Below are positions 2,591 to 32,597 of a stretch of DNA of 32,659 nt, piece after piece. The DNA is from a virus, in the UHGV virus genome UHGV-0188647. One strand, 5' to 3'. Within the stretch, counting starts at the first letter, position 1, and each line of letters opens with the position of its first letter. The translations under genes and the position numbers were made by a program. Below the pieces are notes generated by a model. That model saw nothing but the letters and a program-made list of their open reading frames with translations, had not been told where the DNA came from and made no database searches.

Positions 2591-3106
2591 TCAGAGGCCG
2601 AGGGCGTTGCGGTGCGCTTCCATCAGGTCCACGCCGTCCACAATTTCCACCATGTTGATAAGGTCCACTTCATAGAGCACCTCACCATTGATAGTCAGCT
2701 TCGCGTAGCTGTTGGTACTGGTCACTTTGGTGGTGTTGCTTTCGCCCGTCTTCCACTCGCCGGAATCCACTTCTTTGTGACGTCCACGCACCACAAGCTC
2801 CACGGCCTGCACTTCCCCGGTATCGTCACGCTGAATAGAGCCGGTAAAGCGCAACTGGATACCATCCACCGTGGCTTTGCCCATCTGCTTAAACAGCAGC
2901 AGTTCAGTACCACCAATGGAAAATTCTGTGTCCAGCGCACTATCATCCAGCCCCAGATCCACATCCACTGCACCCGGCATTCCGCCACCGCGATACTTCT
3001 CATATTTGCGGGTGAATTTCGGCAGCGTCAGCGACTCAACGATCCCCTGCCAGTTGTTCCCGTCGTTAAACAGGTTCAGGTGTTTTAATTTGCGTGGTAA
3101 AGCCAT
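2591..3106 (-). CDS. FII: tail tube protein (P2 gpFII-like)
   Basis: 171-aa ORF directly downstream of the sheath gene; size and position match P2 FII. Confidence 0.85.
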   Translation of the reverse strand: MALPRKLKHLNLFNDGNNWQGIVESLTLPKFTRKYEKYRGGGMPGAVDVDLGLDDSALDTEFSIGGTELLLFKQMGKATVDGIQLRFTGSIQRDDTGEVQAVELVVRGRHKEVDSGEWKTGESNTTKVTSTNSYAKLTINGEVLYEVDLINMVEIVDGVDLMEAHRNALGL

Positions 3107-3115
3107 GTTGTCCCC

Positions 3116-4288
3116 TTACGCGCTGACCTGGCTGGAGAAATTCACCAGGTACTGATCGGTGATGCGCTGACGCAGCATCAGGTTTTCAAGTGGCGGCACT
3201 GGTGTGTAGTCGTAGTCGATGGTGAGTTTTCCAGCTTTCAGAGTGTCTTTGTCGTTCACCGACTCATCCAGCCAGCAATCGCCACCAATGAGATAGCCCT
3301 GACTGATCAGGCTGCGCATTTTGGCGCGGATACCTTCGATAATGTCGCGGGCCAGCGACGGATTCAGCGGTTTGTCGACCGCCCACATTGGCGCTTCTGC
3401 CATCGTGTCCATCAGCACCTGCGCCGTGCGGGTGTAGTTTTCGAAGGCAAAGAGTGGGTCATCACTCAGGCAGCGGGAACCCCAGAAGCGAAAGCCGTCT
3501 TTGCGGATAAGTGTGGTAACATCGTTCTGGTTAAGCAGTCCCGCATCAGTTGCCGGGTCCTGCAGATCCCAGAACACATCAGCAGAAATTCCGGTGACAC
3601 CGTTCACGCCCACGTTGGACAGGCTTTTGTGCCACCCTGTCTGCTCATCAATTTTGGCACGCAGACCAAGCGCACGGGCGGTGGCATATGCCGTTGCGTC
3701 GGCATTCAGCACCGTGTCCCAGCCAGTAAAGTCAGGCCAGATCAGCATCCCTTCACGCTGACTGAAGTTTTCACGGTAAGTGATCGCCTCCTGCACCGTC
3801 TTGCAGCCATACGCTGACAGGTAAGCAAACCCACGCAGGCTTTGCGCCACGCCCAGCAACTCAGTAGCAACGGCTTTATTATCGTGCCCCGGCACGCCGA
3901 GAATGCGCGGTTTAACACCGAGCTGTGACTGGGCAGATAACAGGGCTTTCATACCAGTTTTTTTACCTTCAGCAGTCACTGCGCCGATGATATTGGTCGT
4001 GGTTTCTTCTTCCGTTTCACCCTGCGGCACACGCACAACAACGGTCACGGGTTTTGCCTGGTCAGCGATGGCATCCAGCGAACGGGCCAGCGTACCGGAT
4101 TCACCCGCCTTACCGCTGGCAGTAAGCACATCAGTGATCAGCACGGGTTTATTAAGAGGGAACATTTTTGCATCGGCATCATCGCCCGTGCAGACCATGC
4201 CCACGATGGCGGTGCTCACCGTGGTAATGGATCGAGTGCCTTCGTTGACTTCAACAACGCGCACTCCGTGGTGGTAATCCTGAGCCAT
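3116..4288 (-). CDS. FI: contractile tail sheath protein (P2 gpFI-like)
   Basis: 390-aa ORF, first gene after a TGT-N12-ACA late-promoter dyad; size and order FI-FII-E-T match the P2 tail operon. Confidence 0.9.
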
Positions 4289-17823: not shown

Positions 17824-18345
17824 TCAGTTAATCAGTTTATTTAATGACTTAGACCACTTCTGTCCCAAATCATCAATATCAAAATCACCATCTCGCTGCT
17901 GCCATTTAAAAACTAAGGCTATAAGTTCACTCTTGAGGATTCTTTTATAATAATCCTTAGATTTTAATTGCTCAAGTATATGTTCACCAACCTCAGCAAG
18001 CTTTCTATGATTTAATTCTGACAGATCTCGATGCAAATGGTTAACTGATTTATACAAAGTATTTCCTTCAGTACGAGAAATATCAATACCTTTATCTTCA
18101 AACCATTGTGAATCAAGCCAAACCAAATCTATCGTAGCTGGCTCTGACATCGTGGTGGCAAGGGCAACAATAATTTTCTCTACCGATTCATCTTGAAAAT
18201 CGATAGAGTCAGAAACCCAAACTGACAAGGTGTTATTAGAGGTCCTTGTGCAACCTGTTATCGCGTCTGCGGATATATTGTCAGGTGCTCTACCTTTATT
18301 ACATTCCCATTTACTATGGGATATTTTACGCAATAAATATGTCAT
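17824..18345 (-). CDS. hypothetical protein, cargo operon gene 3 (173 aa)
   Basis: AT-rich ORF; its ATG overlaps the upstream gene's stop as TAATG (18343-18347); no family recognised; has an R-x6-H pair (RDLSELNH). Confidence 0.6.
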   Translation of the reverse strand: MTYLLRKISHSKWECNKGRAPDNISADAITGCTRTSNNTLSVWVSDSIDFQDESVEKIIVALATTMSEPATIDLVWLDSQWFEDKGIDISRTEGNTLYKSVNHLHRDLSELNHRKLAEVGEHILEQLKSKDYYKRILKSELIALVFKWQQRDGDFDIDDLGQKWSKSLNKLIN

Positions 18346-18992
18346 TATAGACTTCTCAAATATCCTATAACTGCTTCTTTATATTCTTCCACCCAATCAG
18401 CATCAAATTTCCTCATTCTTTCAAGGACTGGAATAAATGATTTTTCCCCCCAAGACTCAACTGCACGGATCGCTGCCTCAAATATAAGTTCATTCTCAAG
18501 AGAACAAACTCCCATAATCATAGCGTCAGCTTTATTACCTAACCATTCATATTCAATAGTCGATGCAAAATTAATGAAGTTCTTTACATGTTGATCATTC
18601 ATTCTGTACAATTGTACCCATGTCCTTTGAAAGGACTCTTGGAATAAATCCTGATTTTTATCATACAAGAACTCCATGTAAATCTGTGTCTTGCTTATCT
18701 CGCCTTCAATGTAATCTTCTGAACATGTTAACTCAATTAGTCTAGAGGTACATTTTGAAACCTGAATTTCAAAGTTCTGCTTAGTTGACGAACCTTGATT
18801 TATTGACTCAGTCTCTAATTGAAAGCCACCATTTGTTTTGCTATGTGACAGCTCATTTCTTTTAATATCAGCGTAAATGATATTGTTACCATCATAATAA
18901 TCAGAAAATGCACCTATTGAACTTACCCCATTTTTAAACTTAGGTAAGCCAAAAGGCTTTTCATCACTTATTATAAAACTATTCTTTACCAT
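18345..18992 (-). CDS. hypothetical protein, cargo operon gene 2 (215 aa)
   Basis: AT-rich ORF 9 bp after gene 1, with an AAGGTGA RBS; no family recognised. Confidence 0.6.
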   Translation of the reverse strand: MVKNSFIISDEKPFGLPKFKNGVSSIGAFSDYYDGNNIIYADIKRNELSHSKTNGGFQLETESINQGSSTKQNFEIQVSKCTSRLIELTCSEDYIEGEISKTQIYMEFLYDKNQDLFQESFQRTWVQLYRMNDQHVKNFINFASTIEYEWLGNKADAMIMGVCSLENELIFEAAIRAVESWGEKSFIPVLERMRKFDADWVEEYKEAVIGYLRSL

Positions 18993-19001
18993 AGCATCAC
19001 C

Positions 19002-19697
19002 TTACAGAGAAGTGTAGCGTTGTAAATTATCAATAGTTTTAAGATTGTCCTGACACAATAACTCTAGCACGCGGATATATTCATCCCAACCAAACCGCAT
19101 ATATCCATTTTGAGGAAGAGTATTAGTATCAGTTTCAAATAATACGCAATCACTTGGCATACCATTATTCAAAAATGGAGCTGAAATTTCAGCGCGTCTA
19201 ATTGTACTAATACTATTAATTTCTTCCTGATACTCTTCAATATTTTTCCTTACAGCTATACGATTGTCCCACTCAAATGGATTAACACCTTTATAGGTAA
19301 ACAAAGCATTGTAAAGCGAAGAGTAAACAGATTCATCCCCTTGATAGATACGTGAATTCAGAACAGCTATCCTATTTCCTTTTTTCATCGGAAATACGTT
19401 TTGTAGTTCCCTAGATATAGATAGAACCATTTCTGAAAACGCTTGAGGTTCCCCCCCCAAACCATTAAAAATGATTCCATGGCTAGGAAACTCGACTCTT
19501 ACTGTTTGATTGGTATCTACCATGATAAGAATTTGCTTTTTCTCACCAGTGATGGCATTAATCTCCTGACCAAAAGTAGGTACAAATCCAAATTTTCCAA
19601 TCTTATCAAGCATAGATCCAATAGTTAGTGTATTTGGAACTATATCATTATTATTTGTGAAAAAATTAATCTGATGCGTCTGTTCAATCAATTTCAT
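19002..19697 (-). CDS. hypothetical protein, cargo operon gene 1 (231 aa)
   Basis: AT-rich ORF with an AAGGAG RBS 5 nt upstream of the ATG; first gene downstream of the cos-like site; no family recognised. Confidence 0.6.
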   Translation of the reverse strand: MKLIEQTHQINFFTNNNDIVPNTLTIGSMLDKIGKFGFVPTFGQEINAITGEKKQILIMVDTNQTVRVEFPSHGIIFNGLGGEPQAFSEMVLSISRELQNVFPMKKGNRIAVLNSRIYQGDESVYSSLYNALFTYKGVNPFEWDNRIAVRKNIEEYQEEINSISTIRRAEISAPFLNNGMPSDCVLFETDTNTLPQNGYMRFGWDEYIRVLELLCQDNLKTIDNLQRYTSL

Positions 19698-20067: not shown

Positions 20068-20301
20068 TTAATGCAGCCAGCTGTCGTCTTCCCACACCTT
20101 CTGCATAATTTTCATCACTTGTTTTCTTTCTTCGTCCAGTTGCAGTCCGGTTAGTTCCACACCGTTAGAGCTACCTTTGCGAATGCGAATTACCGTTTTG
20201 GGATACAGGGGGCGCAGATTGCGGTAAAGCTCGGATTCAAGGGCGTCCAGGGTAGACTGGCTAATCTTCTGCTCTTTATCGATCATTATTTCAATGCGCA
20301 T
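20068..20301 (-). CDS. DinI-family protein (Tum/DinI-like SOS effector)
   Basis: MRIEIMIDKEQKISQSTLDALESELYRNLRPLYPKTVIRIRKGSSNGVELTGLQLDEERKQVMKIMQKVWEDDSWLH resembles E. coli DinI as I recall it; start taken at the internal ATG 20301 with a GAGGTGA RBS. Confidence 0.7.
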   Translation of the reverse strand: MRIEIMIDKEQKISQSTLDALESELYRNLRPLYPKTVIRIRKGSSNGVELTGLQLDEERKQVMKIMQKVWEDDSWLH

Positions 20302-20311
20302 AAAAGTCACC

Positions 20312-20500
20312 TCAGCTGATGACATCCATTGAGCGGTTGTATTCGTGGGTTCTGATTTTTGCCATGAGTTCATCAGTCAATTCAGAAACCCACTGCAGAG
20401 CCAGCCCCTTCTCTTCATCACTACACTCACTAGCCGCTACAAGCTTAAGAAAAAAATCAATGCGCTGGAGCTTCAAAGACTCCAAAAAATAGTCCTGCAT
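20312..20500 (-). CDS. small hypothetical protein, first gene of the LexA-controlled operon (62 aa)
   Basis: Start taken at ATG 20500-20498, preceded by AGGAGG; the longer ORF-track start (20602) would put the LexA box inside the coding region. Confidence 0.5.
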   Translation of the reverse strand: MQDYFLESLKLQRIDFFLKLVAASECSDEEKGLALQWVSELTDELMAKIRTHEYNRSMDVIS

Positions 20501-20541
20501 CTTTCCTCCTATGACACCACACGCAATACTGTATGTATAAC

Positions 20542-20561
20542 CACTGTTTATATTTACAGTA
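20542..20561 (-). promoter_or_regulatory. LexA (SOS) box
   Basis: cactgtttatatttacagta contains CTGT-N8-ACAG with an AT-rich centre, about 45 bp upstream of the 62-aa gene start. Confidence 0.7.
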
Positions 20562-20653
20562 TATAATAATCTTACTGATGTAAAACGTTTTTTTACATTC
20601 ATCAGCCTGATATGCCTGGTATTATTAAGAGCACGAATTGTTAACCCGCGTAA

Positions 20654-25863: not shown

Positions 25864-26496
25864 ATGATACAGGTAAAGGTTGGAGAGAATACAGGGGGAA
25901 GAGAGGCTATCCATAGACTAATGGCAGCCTATGATTTCAAGTCCAGACAGCAACTTTGCGATCACTTAGGCGCATCAAAAAGCACCATGGCAAACAGATA
26001 CTTAAGAGATAGTTTTCCTGCAGAGTGGGTGATTCAGTGCGCCTTGGAAACAGGAGTTTCTTTACTGTGGCTAACCACCGGACAGGGAGAGCCAGGTCCA
26101 AACATTGAACCTAAAAAAAATATCAATTCCGTGAACTCCAGCAAGGTTGTACCTCTTTCTGAACTAGTATCTCCTGAAATTGACAAGGCGACTCTCAACG
26201 GTGGTTTATTGGTCGATGCTGGAAAAGCAATCATTGATAGCAGCATACTCCCCTCAGACTCAAGCAACCTACTGCTGGTGACTACTTCTGGTGATTCTTA
26301 TTTAATAGATCGCAACCAAACACCACCAGTAAATGGTATGTGGTTAGTCGATATCGACGGGATAAAAAGCATCGTTAAATTGACTCGACTCCCGGGAAAC
26401 AAATTAGTAGTGCATCAGGATGATTCATCGTTTGAGTGCGGTCTGGATGACATTGAGGTAGTAGGCCGCGCACTGAAAATCATTAAGAGCCTTTGA
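25864..26496 (+). CDS. cI: immunity repressor (186 CI-like)
   Basis: 210-aa protein, divergent from the apl-like gene and immediately upstream of int (TGATATG junction). Confidence 0.7.
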   Translation: MIQVKVGENTGGREAIHRLMAAYDFKSRQQLCDHLGASKSTMANRYLRDSFPAEWVIQCALETGVSLLWLTTGQGEPGPNIEPKKNINSVNSSKVVPLSELVSPEIDKATLNGGLLVDAGKAIIDSSILPSDSSNLLLVTTSGDSYLIDRNQTPPVNGMWLVDIDGIKSIVKLTRLPGNKLVVHQDDSSFECGLDDIEVVGRALKIIKSL

Positions 26497-26497
26497 T

Positions 26498-27520
26498 ATG
26501 ACCATCAGAAAACAGCCGAACGGAAAATGGTTGTGTGAGTGCTATCCCAATGGACGCAATGGCAAGCGCGTGCGTAAGCAATTTGCCACGAAAGGCGAAG
26601 CCATTGCGTTTGAAAGCTTCACAATGGAAGAAGTGAATAAAAAACCGTGGTTGGGTGAAAAGGATGATCGGCGACGCCTATCAGAATTAATTGAGCTTTG
26701 GTATTCCCTATATGGTCAAACACTCGCAGACCCCAAGCGCCTCATGGCGAAACTTAGAATTATCTGTAATGGTCTAGGCGATCCCATCGCCTCAGAACTG
26801 ACAGCTGGTGACTTTACAAAATACCGCGAAGCACGGTTAAAAGGTGAAATACGAAATGAAGATGGCACGCTTATGTCGCCCGTTAAGCCCCGCACGGTAA
26901 ACCTTGAACAGCGCAATCTATCATCTGTGTTCGGTACATTAAAAAAACTAGGACACTGGTCAGCACCAAACCCGCTGGCAGGACTTCCGACCTTCAAAAT
27001 TGCCGAAGGTGAGCTGGCTTTTCTTTCCACGGACGAAATCAAGCGCCTGTTGGCGGCATGTGCTGAATCTCAAAGCCCTAGCTTACTAATGATTGCAAAA
27101 ATATGCCTAGCTACTGGCGCACGGTGGAGTGAAGCCGAAAATCTGCAGGGCCATCAAATATCGAAATACCGAATTACTTATACAAAAACAAAAGGCAAGA
27201 AAAACCGTACTGTGCCGATATCTCAGGATCTGTATGATGAACTCCCCAAAAACAGAGGGAAGCTATTCACTCCATGTAGAAAAGCCTTTGAGCGGGCGGT
27301 TAAACGCGCGGGTATTGAGCTGCCAGAAGGCCAATGCACCCATGTACTGCGCCACACATTCGCCAGTCACTTCATGATGAATGGCGGAAACATACTCGTT
27401 TTGAGGGATATTTTAGGGCATTCAGATATTAAGATGACTATGGTTTATGCCCATTTTTCACCAGAGCATCTTGAAGATGCAGTAACTAAAAACCCACTAT
27501 TTAATTTAAATATTATATGA
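26498..27520 (+). CDS. int: tyrosine integrase (P2/186 family)
   Basis: C-terminal catalytic region HVLRHTFASH...LGHSDIKMTMVYAH (R, H-x-x-R and Y signature); 340 aa. Confidence 0.9.
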   Translation: MTIRKQPNGKWLCECYPNGRNGKRVRKQFATKGEAIAFESFTMEEVNKKPWLGEKDDRRRLSELIELWYSLYGQTLADPKRLMAKLRIICNGLGDPIASELTAGDFTKYREARLKGEIRNEDGTLMSPVKPRTVNLEQRNLSSVFGTLKKLGHWSAPNPLAGLPTFKIAEGELAFLSTDEIKRLLAACAESQSPSLLMIAKICLATGARWSEAENLQGHQISKYRITYTKTKGKKNRTVPISQDLYDELPKNRGKLFTPCRKAFERAVKRAGIELPEGQCTHVLRHTFASHFMMNGGNILVLRDILGHSDIKMTMVYAHFSPEHLEDAVTKNPLFNLNII

Positions 27521-28578
27521 ACATTAATACTAGCTTTACTGGAATTATTGTGTATATTTTGGCAATTATTCTTTTTGCGTTTGTATCAATATATAAAAAG
27601 TGGTACATTCTCGATAAAAGAAATTTATTTCAACAGAAATTATTTTGGATTTCAATTGCAGTACCACTGCTGTCATTCATTTATTTTGGAGCATTTGCAT
27701 GGTTTGGTAAAATACCTGTTCTTTCTGCTCACGGATATGCCAGATTCTATGAGATAAGCAAATTCCCATTATTGATACTCGCAAGTTCTGTACCATTAGC
27801 TTCCATAGTAAATAACATTCACAGAACGATACAAACCGAAGCACAAATTAATTCATCTGAAATCAAAAATGCAATCGATAGACATTTTGCTCATGAGAAA
27901 AATTTCGTAGATAAAATTAAAGAAATATCAAGCTTTACGATGCAAAGCTTTGTAGATGACGCATCAAAATATTATAATTACAATGATAGCAACAAAATTA
28001 AAATACTAACAACTCATGAAATTAAAATCTCAAACCCATACTTATTATATTCCAATATATATACAGAATCGTCAATGGATATCACATCCAATTATTCACC
28101 AGACGAGAACTTTAAAAAAAGCATATTGTCAATCCTAGATACCATTAATAATAACTTATCAAAAGATAAGGTTACACCCCATTCAAATGCAGAAGATTAC
28201 CTTACCAGATTAAATACAATTTCATATAACATAGCTAAATTATTAGATACTTTATGCGTAGATTGTATCTCGATAGCCTATATAGAGTTAAAAATCAACG
28301 GCACTAAAATAAGAACGTTCACCCCTACAGAATCAATGTTAGCCGAATCACTTGAGGCTGCATTTTATCTATCTAAAAAGATATTAAAACTAGCTTACGG
28401 ATTTCAGCTTCAAAACTACAGTAATATATATAACTACTTGTACATTGGTGAAATTAAATTTGATACAGAACAATTTTCTAAATTTTTGCAACCATTCTAT
28501 TCTCCTGAATGGTCAGCATACGTAATGGAGAAACCGGTGACAGTTGATGATGGCGGCACTTTGGCGGCAGAGGATTAA
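27517..28578 (+). CDS. hypothetical membrane protein (353 aa), AT-rich moron translationally coupled to int
   Basis: ATGA start/stop overlap with int; 2-3 N-terminal transmembrane helices followed by about 250 aa of soluble N/K/I/Y-rich sequence; no family recognised. Confidence 0.6.
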   Translation: MNINTSFTGIIVYILAIILFAFVSIYKKWYILDKRNLFQQKLFWISIAVPLLSFIYFGAFAWFGKIPVLSAHGYARFYEISKFPLLILASSVPLASIVNNIHRTIQTEAQINSSEIKNAIDRHFAHEKNFVDKIKEISSFTMQSFVDDASKYYNYNDSNKIKILTTHEIKISNPYLLYSNIYTESSMDITSNYSPDENFKKSILSILDTINNNLSKDKVTPHSNAEDYLTRLNTISYNIAKLLDTLCVDCISIAYIELKINGTKIRTFTPTESMLAESLEAAFYLSKKILKLAYGFQLQNYSNIYNYLYIGEIKFDTEQFSKFLQPFYSPEWSAYVMEKPVTVDDGGTLAAED

Positions 28579-28663
28579 AAATAGGTAAAACAAGCAAATA
28601 CACAATAATACTAACACACTAATTTTAAAGATAAATACATGTTTTTATTATAGTAAAAATGGT

Positions 28664-28708
28664 ATGTAGGAATTTCGGACGCGGGTTCAACTCCCGCCAG
28701 CTCCACCA
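28664..28708 (+). other. ssrA: 3'-terminal 45 nt of ssrA (tmRNA), prophage att junction
   Basis: atgtaggaatttcggacgcgggttcaactcccgccagctccacca matches the 3' end of E. coli tmRNA including the CCA, as I recall it; the sequence upstream is AT-rich and unrelated. Confidence 0.75.
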
Positions 28709-28754
28709 AAATTCTCCATCGGTGATTACCAGAGTCATCCGATGAAGTCCTAAG

Positions 28755-28788
28755 AGCCCGCACGGCGCAAGCCCTGCGGGCTTTTTTG
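28755..28788 (+). terminator. rho-independent terminator (native ssrA terminator-like)
   Basis: Long GC hairpin agcccgca...tgcgggct with a GCAA tetraloop, followed by TTTTTT. Confidence 0.55.
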
Positions 28789-28913
28789 TGCCCTCAATTT
28801 GTCCCGCGAAGTCCGAAGAAAACTAATTAAATCCGATCCTTTTAGGCACCTTGTTAGGCACCTCATAAAGCTTTATTGTTTTTTGAGGTGCCTAAAACTA
28901 TGGAAACCCGGCA

Positions 28914-30155
28914 ATGGCAAGACAAACCAAACCTCTATCCGTTAAAGAAATAGAATCAGCCAAACCCAAGGAGGCGGACTACGTTCTCTATGATGGCGAT
29001 GGCCTTGAGCTACTCATTAAATCCAGCGGGAGTAAAATCTGGCAGTTTCGCTACATTCGCCCTGTCACCAAGAAACGAGCAAAGAAGAGCATAGGCTCCT
29101 ACCCGTCAGTTACCCTTGCCGATGCCAGAAACTACCGTGCAGAGTCCCGCTCACTACTGGCTAAACAGATCGATCCGCAGGAACATCAGCAAGAACAATT
29201 GCGCAGTTCGCTGGAAGCCAAAACCAACACTTTCCAACTCGTAGCTGAACGTTGGTGGAATGTGAAGAAAGCCAGTGTGACAGAGGACTATGCGGAAGAT
29301 ATCTGGCGCTCTCTTGAAAGAGACGTCTTTCCTGCGATTGGCGACGTTAGCGTTACAGATATTAAAGCTCATACACTGGTTCAGGCCGTACAACCGGTTC
29401 AGGCCAGAGGAGCACTGGAAACTGTTCGTCGCCTGTGCCAACGTATTAATGAGGTCATGATCTATGCCCAGAACACAGGGCTGATTGATGCTGTTCCCAG
29501 CGTTAATATCGGTAAAGCCTTCGAGAAGCCTCAGAAAAAGAACATGCCCAGCATTCGACCGGATCAGCTACCTCAGTTAATGCAGACGATGCGAACAGCC
29601 AGCATTAGCCTTTCCACACGCTGCCTGTTCATGTGGCAACTTCTTACTATTACCCGCCCTGCCGAAGCGGCTGAAGCTCTCTGGGAAGAGGTAGACATAG
29701 AAGCGCGAGAGTGGAAGATTCCTGCAGCACGCATGAAAATGAACCGCGACCATACTGTTCCATTGTCAGATGAAGCAATTGCGATACTAGAGATGATGAA
29801 GCCGTTAAGTGGAAATCGAGAATTTATCTTTCCCAGCCGCATCAAGCCAAACCAGCCGATGAACAGTCAGACCGTAAACGCATCGCTAAAACGCGCAGGT
29901 TTTGGTGGGGTGCTCGTTTCACACGGCCTGCGATCTATCGCCAGTACAGCCCTTAATGAGCAGGGATTTCCACCTGATGTTATTGAGGCTGCACTTGCTC
30001 ATGTGGATAAGAATGAGGTTCGTCGTGCGTATAACCGTAGTGATTATCTTGAGCAGCGACGGCCTATGATGCAGTGGTGGGCTGATTTTGTGATGGCTGC
30101 AGATCACGGTAGTATGATTGAAGGAGGGATAAAGGCAATGCGGTTAGTTGGATGA
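28914..30155 (+). CDS. P4-type tyrosine integrase (IntA-like) of a second integrated element
   Basis: 413 aa; N-terminus LSVKEIESAKPKEADYVLYDGDGLELLIKSSGSKIWQFRY is the typical P4-integrase arm-binding domain; lies directly downstream of the ssrA 3' end as in ssrA-linked islands. Confidence 0.85.
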   Translation: MARQTKPLSVKEIESAKPKEADYVLYDGDGLELLIKSSGSKIWQFRYIRPVTKKRAKKSIGSYPSVTLADARNYRAESRSLLAKQIDPQEHQQEQLRSSLEAKTNTFQLVAERWWNVKKASVTEDYAEDIWRSLERDVFPAIGDVSVTDIKAHTLVQAVQPVQARGALETVRRLCQRINEVMIYAQNTGLIDAVPSVNIGKAFEKPQKKNMPSIRPDQLPQLMQTMRTASISLSTRCLFMWQLLTITRPAEAAEALWEEVDIEAREWKIPAARMKMNRDHTVPLSDEAIAILEMMKPLSGNREFIFPSRIKPNQPMNSQTVNASLKRAGFGGVLVSHGLRSIASTALNEQGFPPDVIEAALAHVDKNEVRRAYNRSDYLEQRRPMMQWWADFVMAADHGSMIEGGIKAMRLVG

Positions 30156-30235
30156 CATGTCGTAGCTAAAACCCGTTCTGTTTTTGGGTAGATTAACCTG
30201 AAGGTCTGCAATTTTAAATGACGCTGAAAGAAGTT

Positions 30236-30264
30236 AAACCCTGCTCTTAAGCAGGGTTTTTATG
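30236..30264. terminator. bidirectional hairpin between the integrase gene and the convergent large ORF
   Basis: aaaccctgc-tctta-gcagggttt stem-loop followed by ttttat. Confidence 0.45.
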
Positions 30265-30293
30265 ATTTATTCTAATTTTGGTTTTGAATCTTT

Positions 30294-32597
30294 CTATTTT
30301 AAATCAGCCTTTGCGGCTCGAATATCTGCGTTTTTTGCTGAGTATTCCCATTCGTCAGCGATTCTAAATAGCATTGCAGAAGTACGGACGCAGTGGGGCA
30401 TTGAATTTGCCCATTCTCGGTACTGCTCAGCTAATATCCTTTCTTGGTTTCCACCTTCGTAACGCATACGAGCAAATACCCCCCTTTTATTGTACCTACC
30501 AATTTGTATACCTTGCTCTAACTCATCAGAAGATAATATTTCAATGATGTGCCGAATTGCTTCATGTGGCCAGGAATTATCTACTGAGCTATTAGGGGCA
30601 TGTGCCAGAATTTTTCCTATTACATGATCAGTGATTTCTTGGCGATGATGCAATTTTGCTAAATGGCGTACATTCTCACACCAATCTTCAAGTTTATCTT
30701 GATCAATTTCATTGTCTATCTGCCCTGGTAGTATTCGTAATTTTTCAAGTAATCTGTATATAGAAGTAGCTCTTTTAACTTCCAACTCCGATGGTTCTGT
30801 TTGTTCATCTTCGTCACTACGATATACAATACATATTGCTTCTATAAAAACCTCTGGCTTTTTCATCATTAGACGATGCAGGATAAGTGGCTCATCGCTA
30901 TCCGGAAAACAAGGCAAGTAGGTCATTTCTTTAAATGCCAAATCTGTTTCAGAAACATCGTTACGTTGTTTGAGTTCATCAAAAACTTTTTTTACATAGT
31001 ACGATAGCATTGTATCAAATTGGATATCCTGGCTATTTATTTCTTTAACGACTATATCTAGAAGATATAAAAGTGTTGTAGATGGAATCTCAGAAAGGCG
31101 TTGATTTGCTGATATAATAGCAGCAAGACCCCGGCCCCTTTCTATATATTTATCCATAAGAACAAATAAATCCGAAGTTTTACCCATCATTGCAATGGGT
31201 TGTTTTTGCAACCAATATTTTTCGTTGATGTTATCTTCAAACCCTTCAATAATGCTCCATATCTCTTGTGAGTCTCTTAACGATGCTAAGATTTTCCCAG
31301 CCCTATCAGGGGTAATTTTAAACTGTTTAAAATACACTTTTATTTTATTAAGCCATTCAGCACCAAAGCATTCAACACCATATTGCATTAACAACCCACA
31401 AACTTCATCAATATTTTTTTTGTTGTTAATAAGCATTACAAACAAATCATTTAATTTTTCTTCATCCAACGAGAGTGCTGATATATGCCTTGCTGCAATA
31501 AAAACATTATTAACTTGTTGAAAAAGGTCTTTCACCCCAGACAAACCTAAAGTAAAGTATATTTCCCTAAGTTTTTCACTTCGCATTTCTTCGACAGAAG
31601 AAAAAATTCCGCCAGCATTTTCAATTGACTCTTCAATATCAGAATCCCAATCATTGAAAATCCATAAACTGGCTCTAACCATGTCAATTGGTTTATAATT
31701 ATCAAGTATTTTCGCTATTTTTTCCATAGACTCAAATTTAAATGCCCAGTTCGCATCTGAATATTTTTTATGGCGAGAATACTCATGACGCAAAGCCTCC
31801 CATACGATGAACTGATCCTCTTCAGTTTGTTGAGAAAGGCAAAGTTCAAGATGAGAAAGTGTTTCATCTATTGCATTCTCAGGGAATGAGCTTAAATGAG
31901 AGATTAGGATTTCCCATCTTGTTGGGAGTATACCTGCAAGTTTAATTGCTTCTTGGATAATAAAGATTTGCCCCTCCCAAACAACGCCCCACGTTAGTTT
32001 TTCTACATCTTTATCCGACTCTCTGAACTTCATTTTTTGGTTTTGATCAGAGGTATCATGGGAGCGAGGAAGGAGATTTTGTAACAAACTCCACCCAATA
32101 CTAGGAACAATAGTGATAATTTTTTTTATAATTGCATTTCTAACTTTTACTGGTGCCCATGTATTAGGAGACCATGCCAGAAAAATGGTTCTTAAACTAT
32201 TAAGAGGGCGATCTGAGTAAGTTCCTCCGGGATCTATTACAGCGAGTTTTGCAAGACAGATTGCAGCGCGTAATAGATATGTTTGTTCCCAAGCCAAGGC
32301 TTCCAATGCCCATTTTAATCCATGATAATGACTTCGAGGAGTTAACAGCCCTTTATCTTCATTGAATATTGGAGCAATCATTTCCCCATTGCCCTTAAGC
32401 AATTGCTCAAGGGCATCAAGGAAAGGGCCAGGGGCAGCTTCTGCCAGCAGCGGAAGTTGATCTCGCAAACTAACAAATAGTCGATGGTCGTTAGCAAGTC
32501 CCGGAATACTCTGAACTATTTTGTTAACAAAATCTTGGGGTGTCATACCAGTAACCCGGAATTCGGCCTGTTCATGTAATATGATCTTACCCAGCAA
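30294..32597 (-). CDS. large hypothetical protein (767 aa), AT-rich island cargo
   Basis: Long uninterrupted AT-rich ORF convergent with the P4-type integrase; no Walker A or other motif recognised; the start may be the Met at 32597 or the internal Met at residue 17. Confidence 0.6.
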   Translation of the reverse strand: MLGKIILHEQAEFRVTGMTPQDFVNKIVQSIPGLANDHRLFVSLRDQLPLLAEAAPGPFLDALEQLLKGNGEMIAPIFNEDKGLLTPRSHYHGLKWALEALAWEQTYLLRAAICLAKLAVIDPGGTYSDRPLNSLRTIFLAWSPNTWAPVKVRNAIIKKIITIVPSIGWSLLQNLLPRSHDTSDQNQKMKFRESDKDVEKLTWGVVWEGQIFIIQEAIKLAGILPTRWEILISHLSSFPENAIDETLSHLELCLSQQTEEDQFIVWEALRHEYSRHKKYSDANWAFKFESMEKIAKILDNYKPIDMVRASLWIFNDWDSDIEESIENAGGIFSSVEEMRSEKLREIYFTLGLSGVKDLFQQVNNVFIAARHISALSLDEEKLNDLFVMLINNKKNIDEVCGLLMQYGVECFGAEWLNKIKVYFKQFKITPDRAGKILASLRDSQEIWSIIEGFEDNINEKYWLQKQPIAMMGKTSDLFVLMDKYIERGRGLAAIISANQRLSEIPSTTLLYLLDIVVKEINSQDIQFDTMLSYYVKKVFDELKQRNDVSETDLAFKEMTYLPCFPDSDEPLILHRLMMKKPEVFIEAICIVYRSDEDEQTEPSELEVKRATSIYRLLEKLRILPGQIDNEIDQDKLEDWCENVRHLAKLHHRQEITDHVIGKILAHAPNSSVDNSWPHEAIRHIIEILSSDELEQGIQIGRYNKRGVFARMRYEGGNQERILAEQYREWANSMPHCVRTSAMLFRIADEWEYSAKNADIRAAKADLK

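Follow-up and report, generated by a model that had tools for sequence, protein, structure and literature searches.

A split tumA-tumB module with a putative LexA box as the probable SOS-induction operon of a P2/186-like prophage

The record of phage 186 annotates the promoter p95 (TTCACA-18-TACTGT), a LexA site whose first bases are the -10 hexamer, a 146-aa tum gene with several internal starts leading to DinI-like truncated products, a partial terminator, and orf97. According to the biochemistry of Shearwin (1998), as cited in PMC3121763 and PMC7708051, 186 Tum binds the CI repressor and blocks its operator binding. In Fels-2 and PSP3, tum is split by a stop codon and the antirepressor is the upstream gene (Lemire et al. 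2011, PMC3121763); the sources named there for the split, and considered here as that article cites them, are Bunny et al. (2002) and a personal communication of G. E. Christie. The antirepressor activity of PSP3 tumA is reported in the same article as a personal communication and is thus a second-hand citation. The PSP3 record describes tumA as "similar to 5' end 186 tum; UV induction of prophage" and tumB as "similar to dinI and 3' end of 186 tum", and in Fels-2 the gene after a 62-aa ORF is a DinI gene with a note on its similarity to PSP3 TumB. [quoted passage not shown] However, the order is reversed with dinI first, and these are lambdoid phages with another repressor family, and the known likeness of their antirepressors to TumA is one of function.

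The DuoHS prophage of E. coli HS was investigated in the Phollow study (Nat Microbiol 2025, PMC12055606). When tum (ECHS_RS04495 per the supplement) was deleted in frame, mitomycin C no longer induced lysis or viral foci; the lexA(Ind-) allele G85D likewise abolished both, and the host SOS reporter response was intact in the tum deletion. The split tum module is therefore already known: the two-gene form was described in 2002–2011 for Fels-2 and PSP3, and a near-identical module of an E. coli prophage was tested genetically in 2025. The locus reported here adds little to the biology, and its practical value lies in annotation.

We analyzed a stretch of 32.7 kb, referred to as the window, which contains a P2/186-like (Peduoviridae) prophage. 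Downstream of replication gene A, it carries a 62-aa ORF of the tumA type (ORF1, TumA) and a DinI-family ORF (ORF2, TumB), and the coordinates of these and the surrounding elements are provided in Table 1. Very probably, the module serves a P2-like prophage of the 186/Fels-2 type as its SOS-induction operon, with tum in the split form of tumA plus tumB. Gene A, module and cos all lie on the minus strand, in an order shared with 186, PSP3, Fels-2 and DuoHS. An earlier note, made from the letters of the window, had recognized the position and regulation of the 186 tum operon, and the location downstream of gene A, the p95-like promoter, the LexA box over the -10 hexamer and the homologies to both halves of Tum bear this out.

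Table 1. Coordinates of the tumA-tumB module and of neighboring elements in the window
Feature	Coordinates	Strand	Basis or remark
Replication gene A, 804 aa	23068-20654	minus	
Spacer from gene A to the 62-aa ORF, 150 bp		minus	carries promoter and LexA box
Whole module, -35 hexamer to end of tumB	20584-20068	minus	
-35 hexamer TTTACA, p95-like promoter	20584-20579	minus	homology to 186 p95 -35 TTCACA
-10 hexamer TACTGT	20561-20556	minus	17-nt spacer from -35; equals first six bases of LexA box
Putative LexA box TACTGTAAATATAAACAGTG	20561-20542	minus	core CTGT-N8-ACAG 20559-20544
Shine-Dalgarno AGGAGG of tumA	20510-20505	minus	sequence
tumA-type gene (ORF1), 62 aa	20500-20312, stop codon included	minus	ATG at 20500
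tumB RBS GAGGTGA, overlapping tumA stop codon	20313-20307	minus	10-nt gap from tumA to tumB ATG
tumB (ORF2), DinI family, 77 aa	20301-20068, stop codon included	minus	Pfam DinI
Long hairpin past ORF2	~20065-20023	minus	RNA fold
Terminator-like GC-rich hairpin, GGCCCGCCA-GAAC-TGGCGGGCC-type stem, then UUUU	~19935-19909	minus	RNA fold
cos cohesive-end sequence GGCGTGGCGGGGATACGAG	19863-19845	minus	match to annotated 186 cos
Three low-GC ORFs beyond cos	17824-19697	minus	
186-type CI immunity repressor	25864-26496	plus	Pfam Phage_CI_repr and Phage_CI_C
Prophage integrase	26498-27520		window ORF
Second, P4-type integrase	28914-30155		Arm-DNA-bind_3, Phage_int_M, Phage_integrase
767-aa ORF	30294-32597		no family match

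The promoter was called by homology to the annotated 186 element and the terminator by RNA folding. The first 13 of the 19 nt of GGCGTGGCGGGGATACGAG are the same as in the annotated 186 cos, and the 240 bp preceding cos are collinear with the 186 right terminus. The terminator expected just before cos corresponds to the GC-rich hairpin with its UUUU tract, which has an 11-pair stem in a region with a folding z-score of -3.2. This hairpin was not among the calls of a consensus terminator scan; it is intrinsic-terminator-like and presumably ends the transcript. Past the three ORFs beyond cos, the portal and terminase genes follow on the plus strand. The placement of the module at the "prophage right end" holds for the right end of the virion map, beside cos, but not for an end of the integrated prophage, as judged from the position of int (Table 1) and from the portal and terminase genes lying across cos.

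The promoter of the window reads TTTACA-17-TACTGT, with the LexA box overlapping the -10 hexamer, and its -35 hexamer is identical in E. coli HS DuoHS, Fels-2 and phage 500465-1. A consensus promoter scan of the window did not call this p95-like promoter, due to its weak -10 hexamer. A LexA box of the form CTGT-N8-ACAG had been noted at 20544–20559, about 45 bp upstream of a 62-aa ORF with AGGAGG; it is present at exactly these positions, its end lies 43 nt before the ATG, and the AGGAGG is found between the two. The match is the only one in the window. However, 0.38 matches are expected by chance and at least one occurred in 27 of 100 shuffles of the window, so the bare pattern is weak evidence when taken alone. 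The extended site TACTGTAAATATAAACAGTG agrees with the consensus TACTGTATATATATACAGTA at 17 of 20 positions.

To place the locus among its relatives, we used a comparative set of 40 loci from Enterobacterales (Escherichia, Citrobacter, Klebsiella, Enterobacter, Serratia, Pantoea, Erwinia, Tatumella, Izhakiella and others). A LexA-like box, matching at least 7 of 8 core positions and 15–19 of 20 positions overall, was present in all 39 loci with enough upstream sequence, located 38–97 nt before the start codon of the tumA homologue, and the statistical argument for LexA control actually comes from this conservation. The motif [A/G]GGAGG occupies the Shine-Dalgarno position in most related loci. 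The promoter and box of DuoHS are identical to those of the window, and induction of the DuoHS prophage needs cleavable LexA (PMC12055606). Since the bare pattern is common by chance, the case for LexA control rests on this conservation and on the DuoHS and 186 experiments, and LexA is predicted to bind at 20542–20561.

Some variation was observed around the box. The distance from box to start codon is 18 nt in 186 versus 43 nt in the window, and the related loci fall into position classes of about -40, -65 and -95. An extra ATACATACAGTAT element, containing ACAGTA, which resembles a LexA half-site, lies between box and RBS at 20523–20541 (minus strand); it is absent from 186 and PSP3, where the box is 18–20 nt from the start codon.

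ORF1 is 98.4% identical to Fels-2 STM2728 and differs from ECHS_RS04495 of E. coli HS by one amino acid (T50S). A BLASTP comparison of ORF1 with 186 Tum gave zero alignments, and a shallow profile comparison of the ORF1 family (members at least 81% identical) with Tum reached only 63% probability. A second profile, to which divergent representatives of the ORF1 family had been added, was compared with a profile of 186-type Tum N-termini; hhalign then gave a probability of 97% and an E-value of 1.1e-10, aligning columns 4–44 to columns 4–44. The HMM of the ORF1 family also found 186 Tum by hmmsearch with 34 bits at residues 5–43, and the 60-aa "tum protein" of Yersinia phage vB_YenM_06.16-2 is a weak tblastn match to ORF1 and to the N-terminus of 186 Tum. 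On these comparisons ORF1 is homologous to the N-terminus of 186 Tum, the relationship being detectable at the profile level only. The HMM misses PSP3 TumA, so the link to that protein is the PSP3 record's own note. The predicted fold of TumA is a two-helix hairpin (pLDDT 91), and a Foldseek search of the PDB with this model returned only non-specific helical hairpins, the best with an E-value of about 1, and no solved relative.

The annotation of this family is poor. Pfam and NCBIfam have no family for ORF1, its PHROG match (698) is labelled "unknown function", and RefSeq names the proteins "hypothetical protein", while one UniRef or phage record gives "levan regulatory protein". Gene callers often lengthen tumA through the promoter to 87–101 aa, for example from the ATG at 20602.

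The DinI-family ORF reported to follow the 62-aa ORF was confirmed as ORF2, which matches Pfam DinI (PF06183) with an E-value of 6.6e-23 and 81.3 bits (cut-off 24.2) over profile positions 1–63 of 63. Alignment to both proteins named in the earlier note placed the two ORFs: ORF2 aligns with residues 1–77 of E. coli DinI (1GHH; E-value 2.7e-6), end to end and including the region of the acidic C-terminal helix, and with residues 71–145 of 186 Tum (41% identity over 75 aa, E-value 3e-24), and ORF1 fits the Tum N-terminus. ORF2 is 100% identical to ECHS_RS04500 of E. coli HS, and it matches PHROG 189, "RecA filament binding protein DinI", at profile positions 71–148 of 151. In contrast to E. coli DinI, ORF2 is phage-borne, and its score against the NCBIfam DinI equivalog model (42.7 bits against a cut-off of 111 bits) indicates a paralogue and not chromosomal DinI. 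From its family, TumB most likely binds RecA filaments and tunes the SOS response.

The hhalign and hmmsearch results for ORF1 and the 41% identity for ORF2 show that each ORF is the homologue of one half of Tum and that the two lie in the same order as these halves. The N-terminal 45 residues of 186 Tum correspond to TumA and the C-terminal 75 residues to TumB; in 186 both parts are fused via a linker of about 25 aa, whereas they are separate cistrons in the window. The promoter and LexA-box design, the position downstream of gene A and a 186-type CI, the presumed target in the window, are common to both. The next gene of the 186 operon is orf97, whereas the window has no orf97 homologue there; the Fels-2 gene after tumB showed no similarity to orf97 either. 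PSP3 tumA/tumB and Fels-2 STM2728/STM2726.1 resemble the window in having two genes only a short spacer apart, preceded by a LexA box and located downstream of gene A. PSP3 TumB is clearly similar to ORF2, but PSP3 TumA is very divergent in sequence from that of the window, and the PSP3 spacer is only 3 nt.

The closest tested relative is DuoHS, where the module also lies between gene A and cos/portal. Apart from the single TumA substitution and the identical TumB, the -35 and -10 hexamers, the LexA box and the RBS are all identical to those of the window. By contrast, the CI proteins are just 44% identical, and two other hypothetical genes follow tumB in DuoHS, where the window has three low-GC ORFs beyond cos. 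The gene deleted as "tum" in E. coli HS, ECHS_RS04495, is the 62-aa gene and is annotated as "hypothetical protein". Reduced translation of the closely spaced downstream tumB may have contributed to the phenotype. As the DuoHS module is near-identical and tum was deleted there, the deletion experiment proposed in the earlier note has in effect already been done, and the proposal that the module is the SOS-induction trigger gains support from these experiments (PMC12055606).

The repressor of the window is consistent with this function. Its CI is 33% identical to 186 CI over the full length, a 186-type CII (CP76) gene is also present, and Pfam detected no S24 peptidase (autocleavage) domain in CI. 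Repressors of this kind, 186-type and lacking the autocleavage domain, depend on an antirepressor for induction by the SOS response, and by analogy with 186 this CI is the likely target of TumA. In the lysogen, host LexA would occupy the box over the -10 hexamer of the p95-like promoter and keep the operon off. Upon DNA damage, activated RecA would promote self-cleavage of LexA and the promoter would fire. The helical hairpin of TumA would then bind the RecA-uncleavable CI, as 186 Tum does, CI would leave its operators, and the derepressed lytic promoter would lead to prophage induction. TumB, co-transcribed and translationally adjacent, would bind RecA filaments and tune the strength or duration of the SOS response as an accessory and not as the trigger, and transcription would stop at the hairpin just before cos. 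Both the TumA-CI contact and the RecA-modulating role of TumB are presumed for the prophage of the window from these relatives.

The module could instead be an SOS-inducible moron that modulates host RecA and the SOS response for the benefit of the lysogen and has no part in prophage induction. DinI homologues do modulate RecA filaments, and the prophage of the window could be defective; but the near-identity to the functional DuoHS module, the presence of the cognate non-cleavable 186-type CI and the conserved association of the LexA box with tumA in the gene A-cos interval make this reading very unlikely.

The comparison of the window with DuoHS also hints at which part of CI is contacted. 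Between the two CI proteins (DuoHS CI at L008 3701–4270), identity is about 77% within the N-terminal HTH domain but only about 29% across the linker and C-terminal domain, whereas TumA is 98% identical. Tentatively, TumA might recognize the conserved N-terminal DNA-binding domain of 186-type CI rather than the divergent C-terminal oligomerization domain, a possibility to which we give less than even weight. If this were true, a single TumA allele could act in trans and induce several P2-like prophages of differing immunity, with prophage crosstalk similar to that of Gifsy. In that scheme TumB/DinI, which accompanies TumA in only about half of the loci, would tune RecA activity without being indispensable.

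The relative constancy of the two genes was evaluated in the 40 loci. The ORF1 homologue is 62 aa long in nearly all of them. A DinI gene is located downstream in 22 of the 40, three of these matches being partial or disrupted, and no DinI gene was found within 1.5 kb in the other 18. Where present, the DinI gene follows the stop codon of the tumA homologue after a G-rich spacer of 8–13 nt, in relative frames 0, 1 and 2. The phages ESSI-2, ev040 and vB_YenM_06.16-2 have a TumA-type gene and a LexA box but no DinI gene. Furthermore, 86 representatives of the family, drawn from 1.8 billion proteins, are almost all stand-alone proteins of 45–100 aa. According to these results, TumA is the constant element and DinI is optional.

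This distribution bears on a rival idea, in which the inducer proper would be the DinI-like ORF2, and ORF1 would be either a leader peptide or a small unrelated gene. Only ORF2 belongs to a database family, and full-length Tum is labelled a "DinI" protein in PHROG, NCBI and phage records, which would lend the idea some appeal. Nevertheless, the DuoHS deletion that abolished induction hit the 62-aa gene, PSP3 tumA is the gene annotated with UV induction, and about half of the loci, together with the three phages named above, combine a LexA box with a TumA-type gene and lack DinI. [quoted passage not shown] We therefore consider ORF2 an extremely improbable trigger and retain TumA in this role.

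The module consists of two separate small ORFs instead of one Tum of about 146 aa, as stated in the earlier note, which left undecided whether the split is native or a frameshift. The PSP3 tumA/tumB annotation, the Fels-2 pair, the statement of Lemire et al. and the conservation across the 40 loci establish that the two-gene layout is native, and on this comparison it is widespread. The case that would have overturned the reading of two genes is a single 186-like tum (about 146 aa) disrupted near 20301–20312, either through a frameshift mutation or through an error in sequencing, and it was considered in detail. The frame of ORF2 is open for 24 codons before its ATG (a 101-aa ORF, 20068–20373), and with a +1 shift the product would reach about 143 aa, near the size of 186 Tum; however, chance alone would leave 24 codons open in about one case out of three. 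The same stop codon and spacer are kept in E. coli HS, Fels-2, PSP3, Klebsiella phages and the 40 loci of many genera, the spacer occurs in all three relative frames, and even the in-frame cases keep the stop codon. The loci lacking a DinI gene and the stand-alone family representatives point in the same direction. The comparison of the loci, the phages and the 86 representatives leaves no room for a sequencing error, for a frameshift that arose recently or for a conserved recoding signal, and we assign a broken tum hardly any probability. A fused TumA-TumB of 186-like antirepressor size, made by programmed frameshifting or stop-codon readthrough, might be suggested by the 10-nt gene spacing and a small hairpin at the junction, but its chance is just as negligible, given that close relatives have tumB in different relative frames (0, 1, 2) and no conserved slippery motif, that tumB has its own RBS and ATG everywhere, that loci with TumA only are common, and that in 186, according to its annotation, an internal start also yields the DinI part as a separate product.

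The junction hairpin (GTCATC-AGCTGA-GGTGAC followed by TTTTATG, 20323–20306, minus strand) encloses the tumA stop codon and the tumB RBS and might couple translation of tumB to that of tumA. Its sequence is unconserved in more distant loci.

A 901-bp region of the locus was found in 1281 of 5426 complete E. coli genomes, about a quarter, and RefSeq annotates the region as two separate genes. At present, neither Pfam nor NCBIfam offers a model for the SOS trigger itself, the 62-aa TumA, and it is the accessory DinI-like gene that bears a functional-sounding name. A LexA box together with tumA could serve as a simple predictor of SOS-inducible P2-like prophages.

Several neighboring elements were also observed. 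The three consecutive ORFs between cos and portal (231, 215 and 173 aa) have a GC content of 0.32–0.39, compared with 0.45–0.56 in the flanks. They match PHROGs 19817, 21208 and 10743, all of "unknown function", and Pfam, NCBIfam and PADLOC gave nothing for them. The cos-portal position is a variable cargo slot, occupied by a TIR-domain gene in phage 500465-1 and by other hypothetical genes in DuoHS, and the low-GC cassette is a candidate for an uncharacterized defence or moron cassette. Beside the prophage integrase, a 353-aa ORF without a family match overlaps the stop codon of int. The region 27517–32597, which includes this ORF, the P4-type integrase and the 767-aa ORF, looks like a second integrative element abutting the prophage; a tRNA gene search of the window found none.

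Phage 500465-1 (NC_049342.1) shows several single-base indels in tumA and tumB at 3040–3750 compared with the window, DuoHS and Fels-2. These account for its odd gene calls (CDSs of 96 aa and 105 aa) and are probably sequencing errors in NC_049342.1. Gene A of the same phage is interrupted by IS100-like genes.
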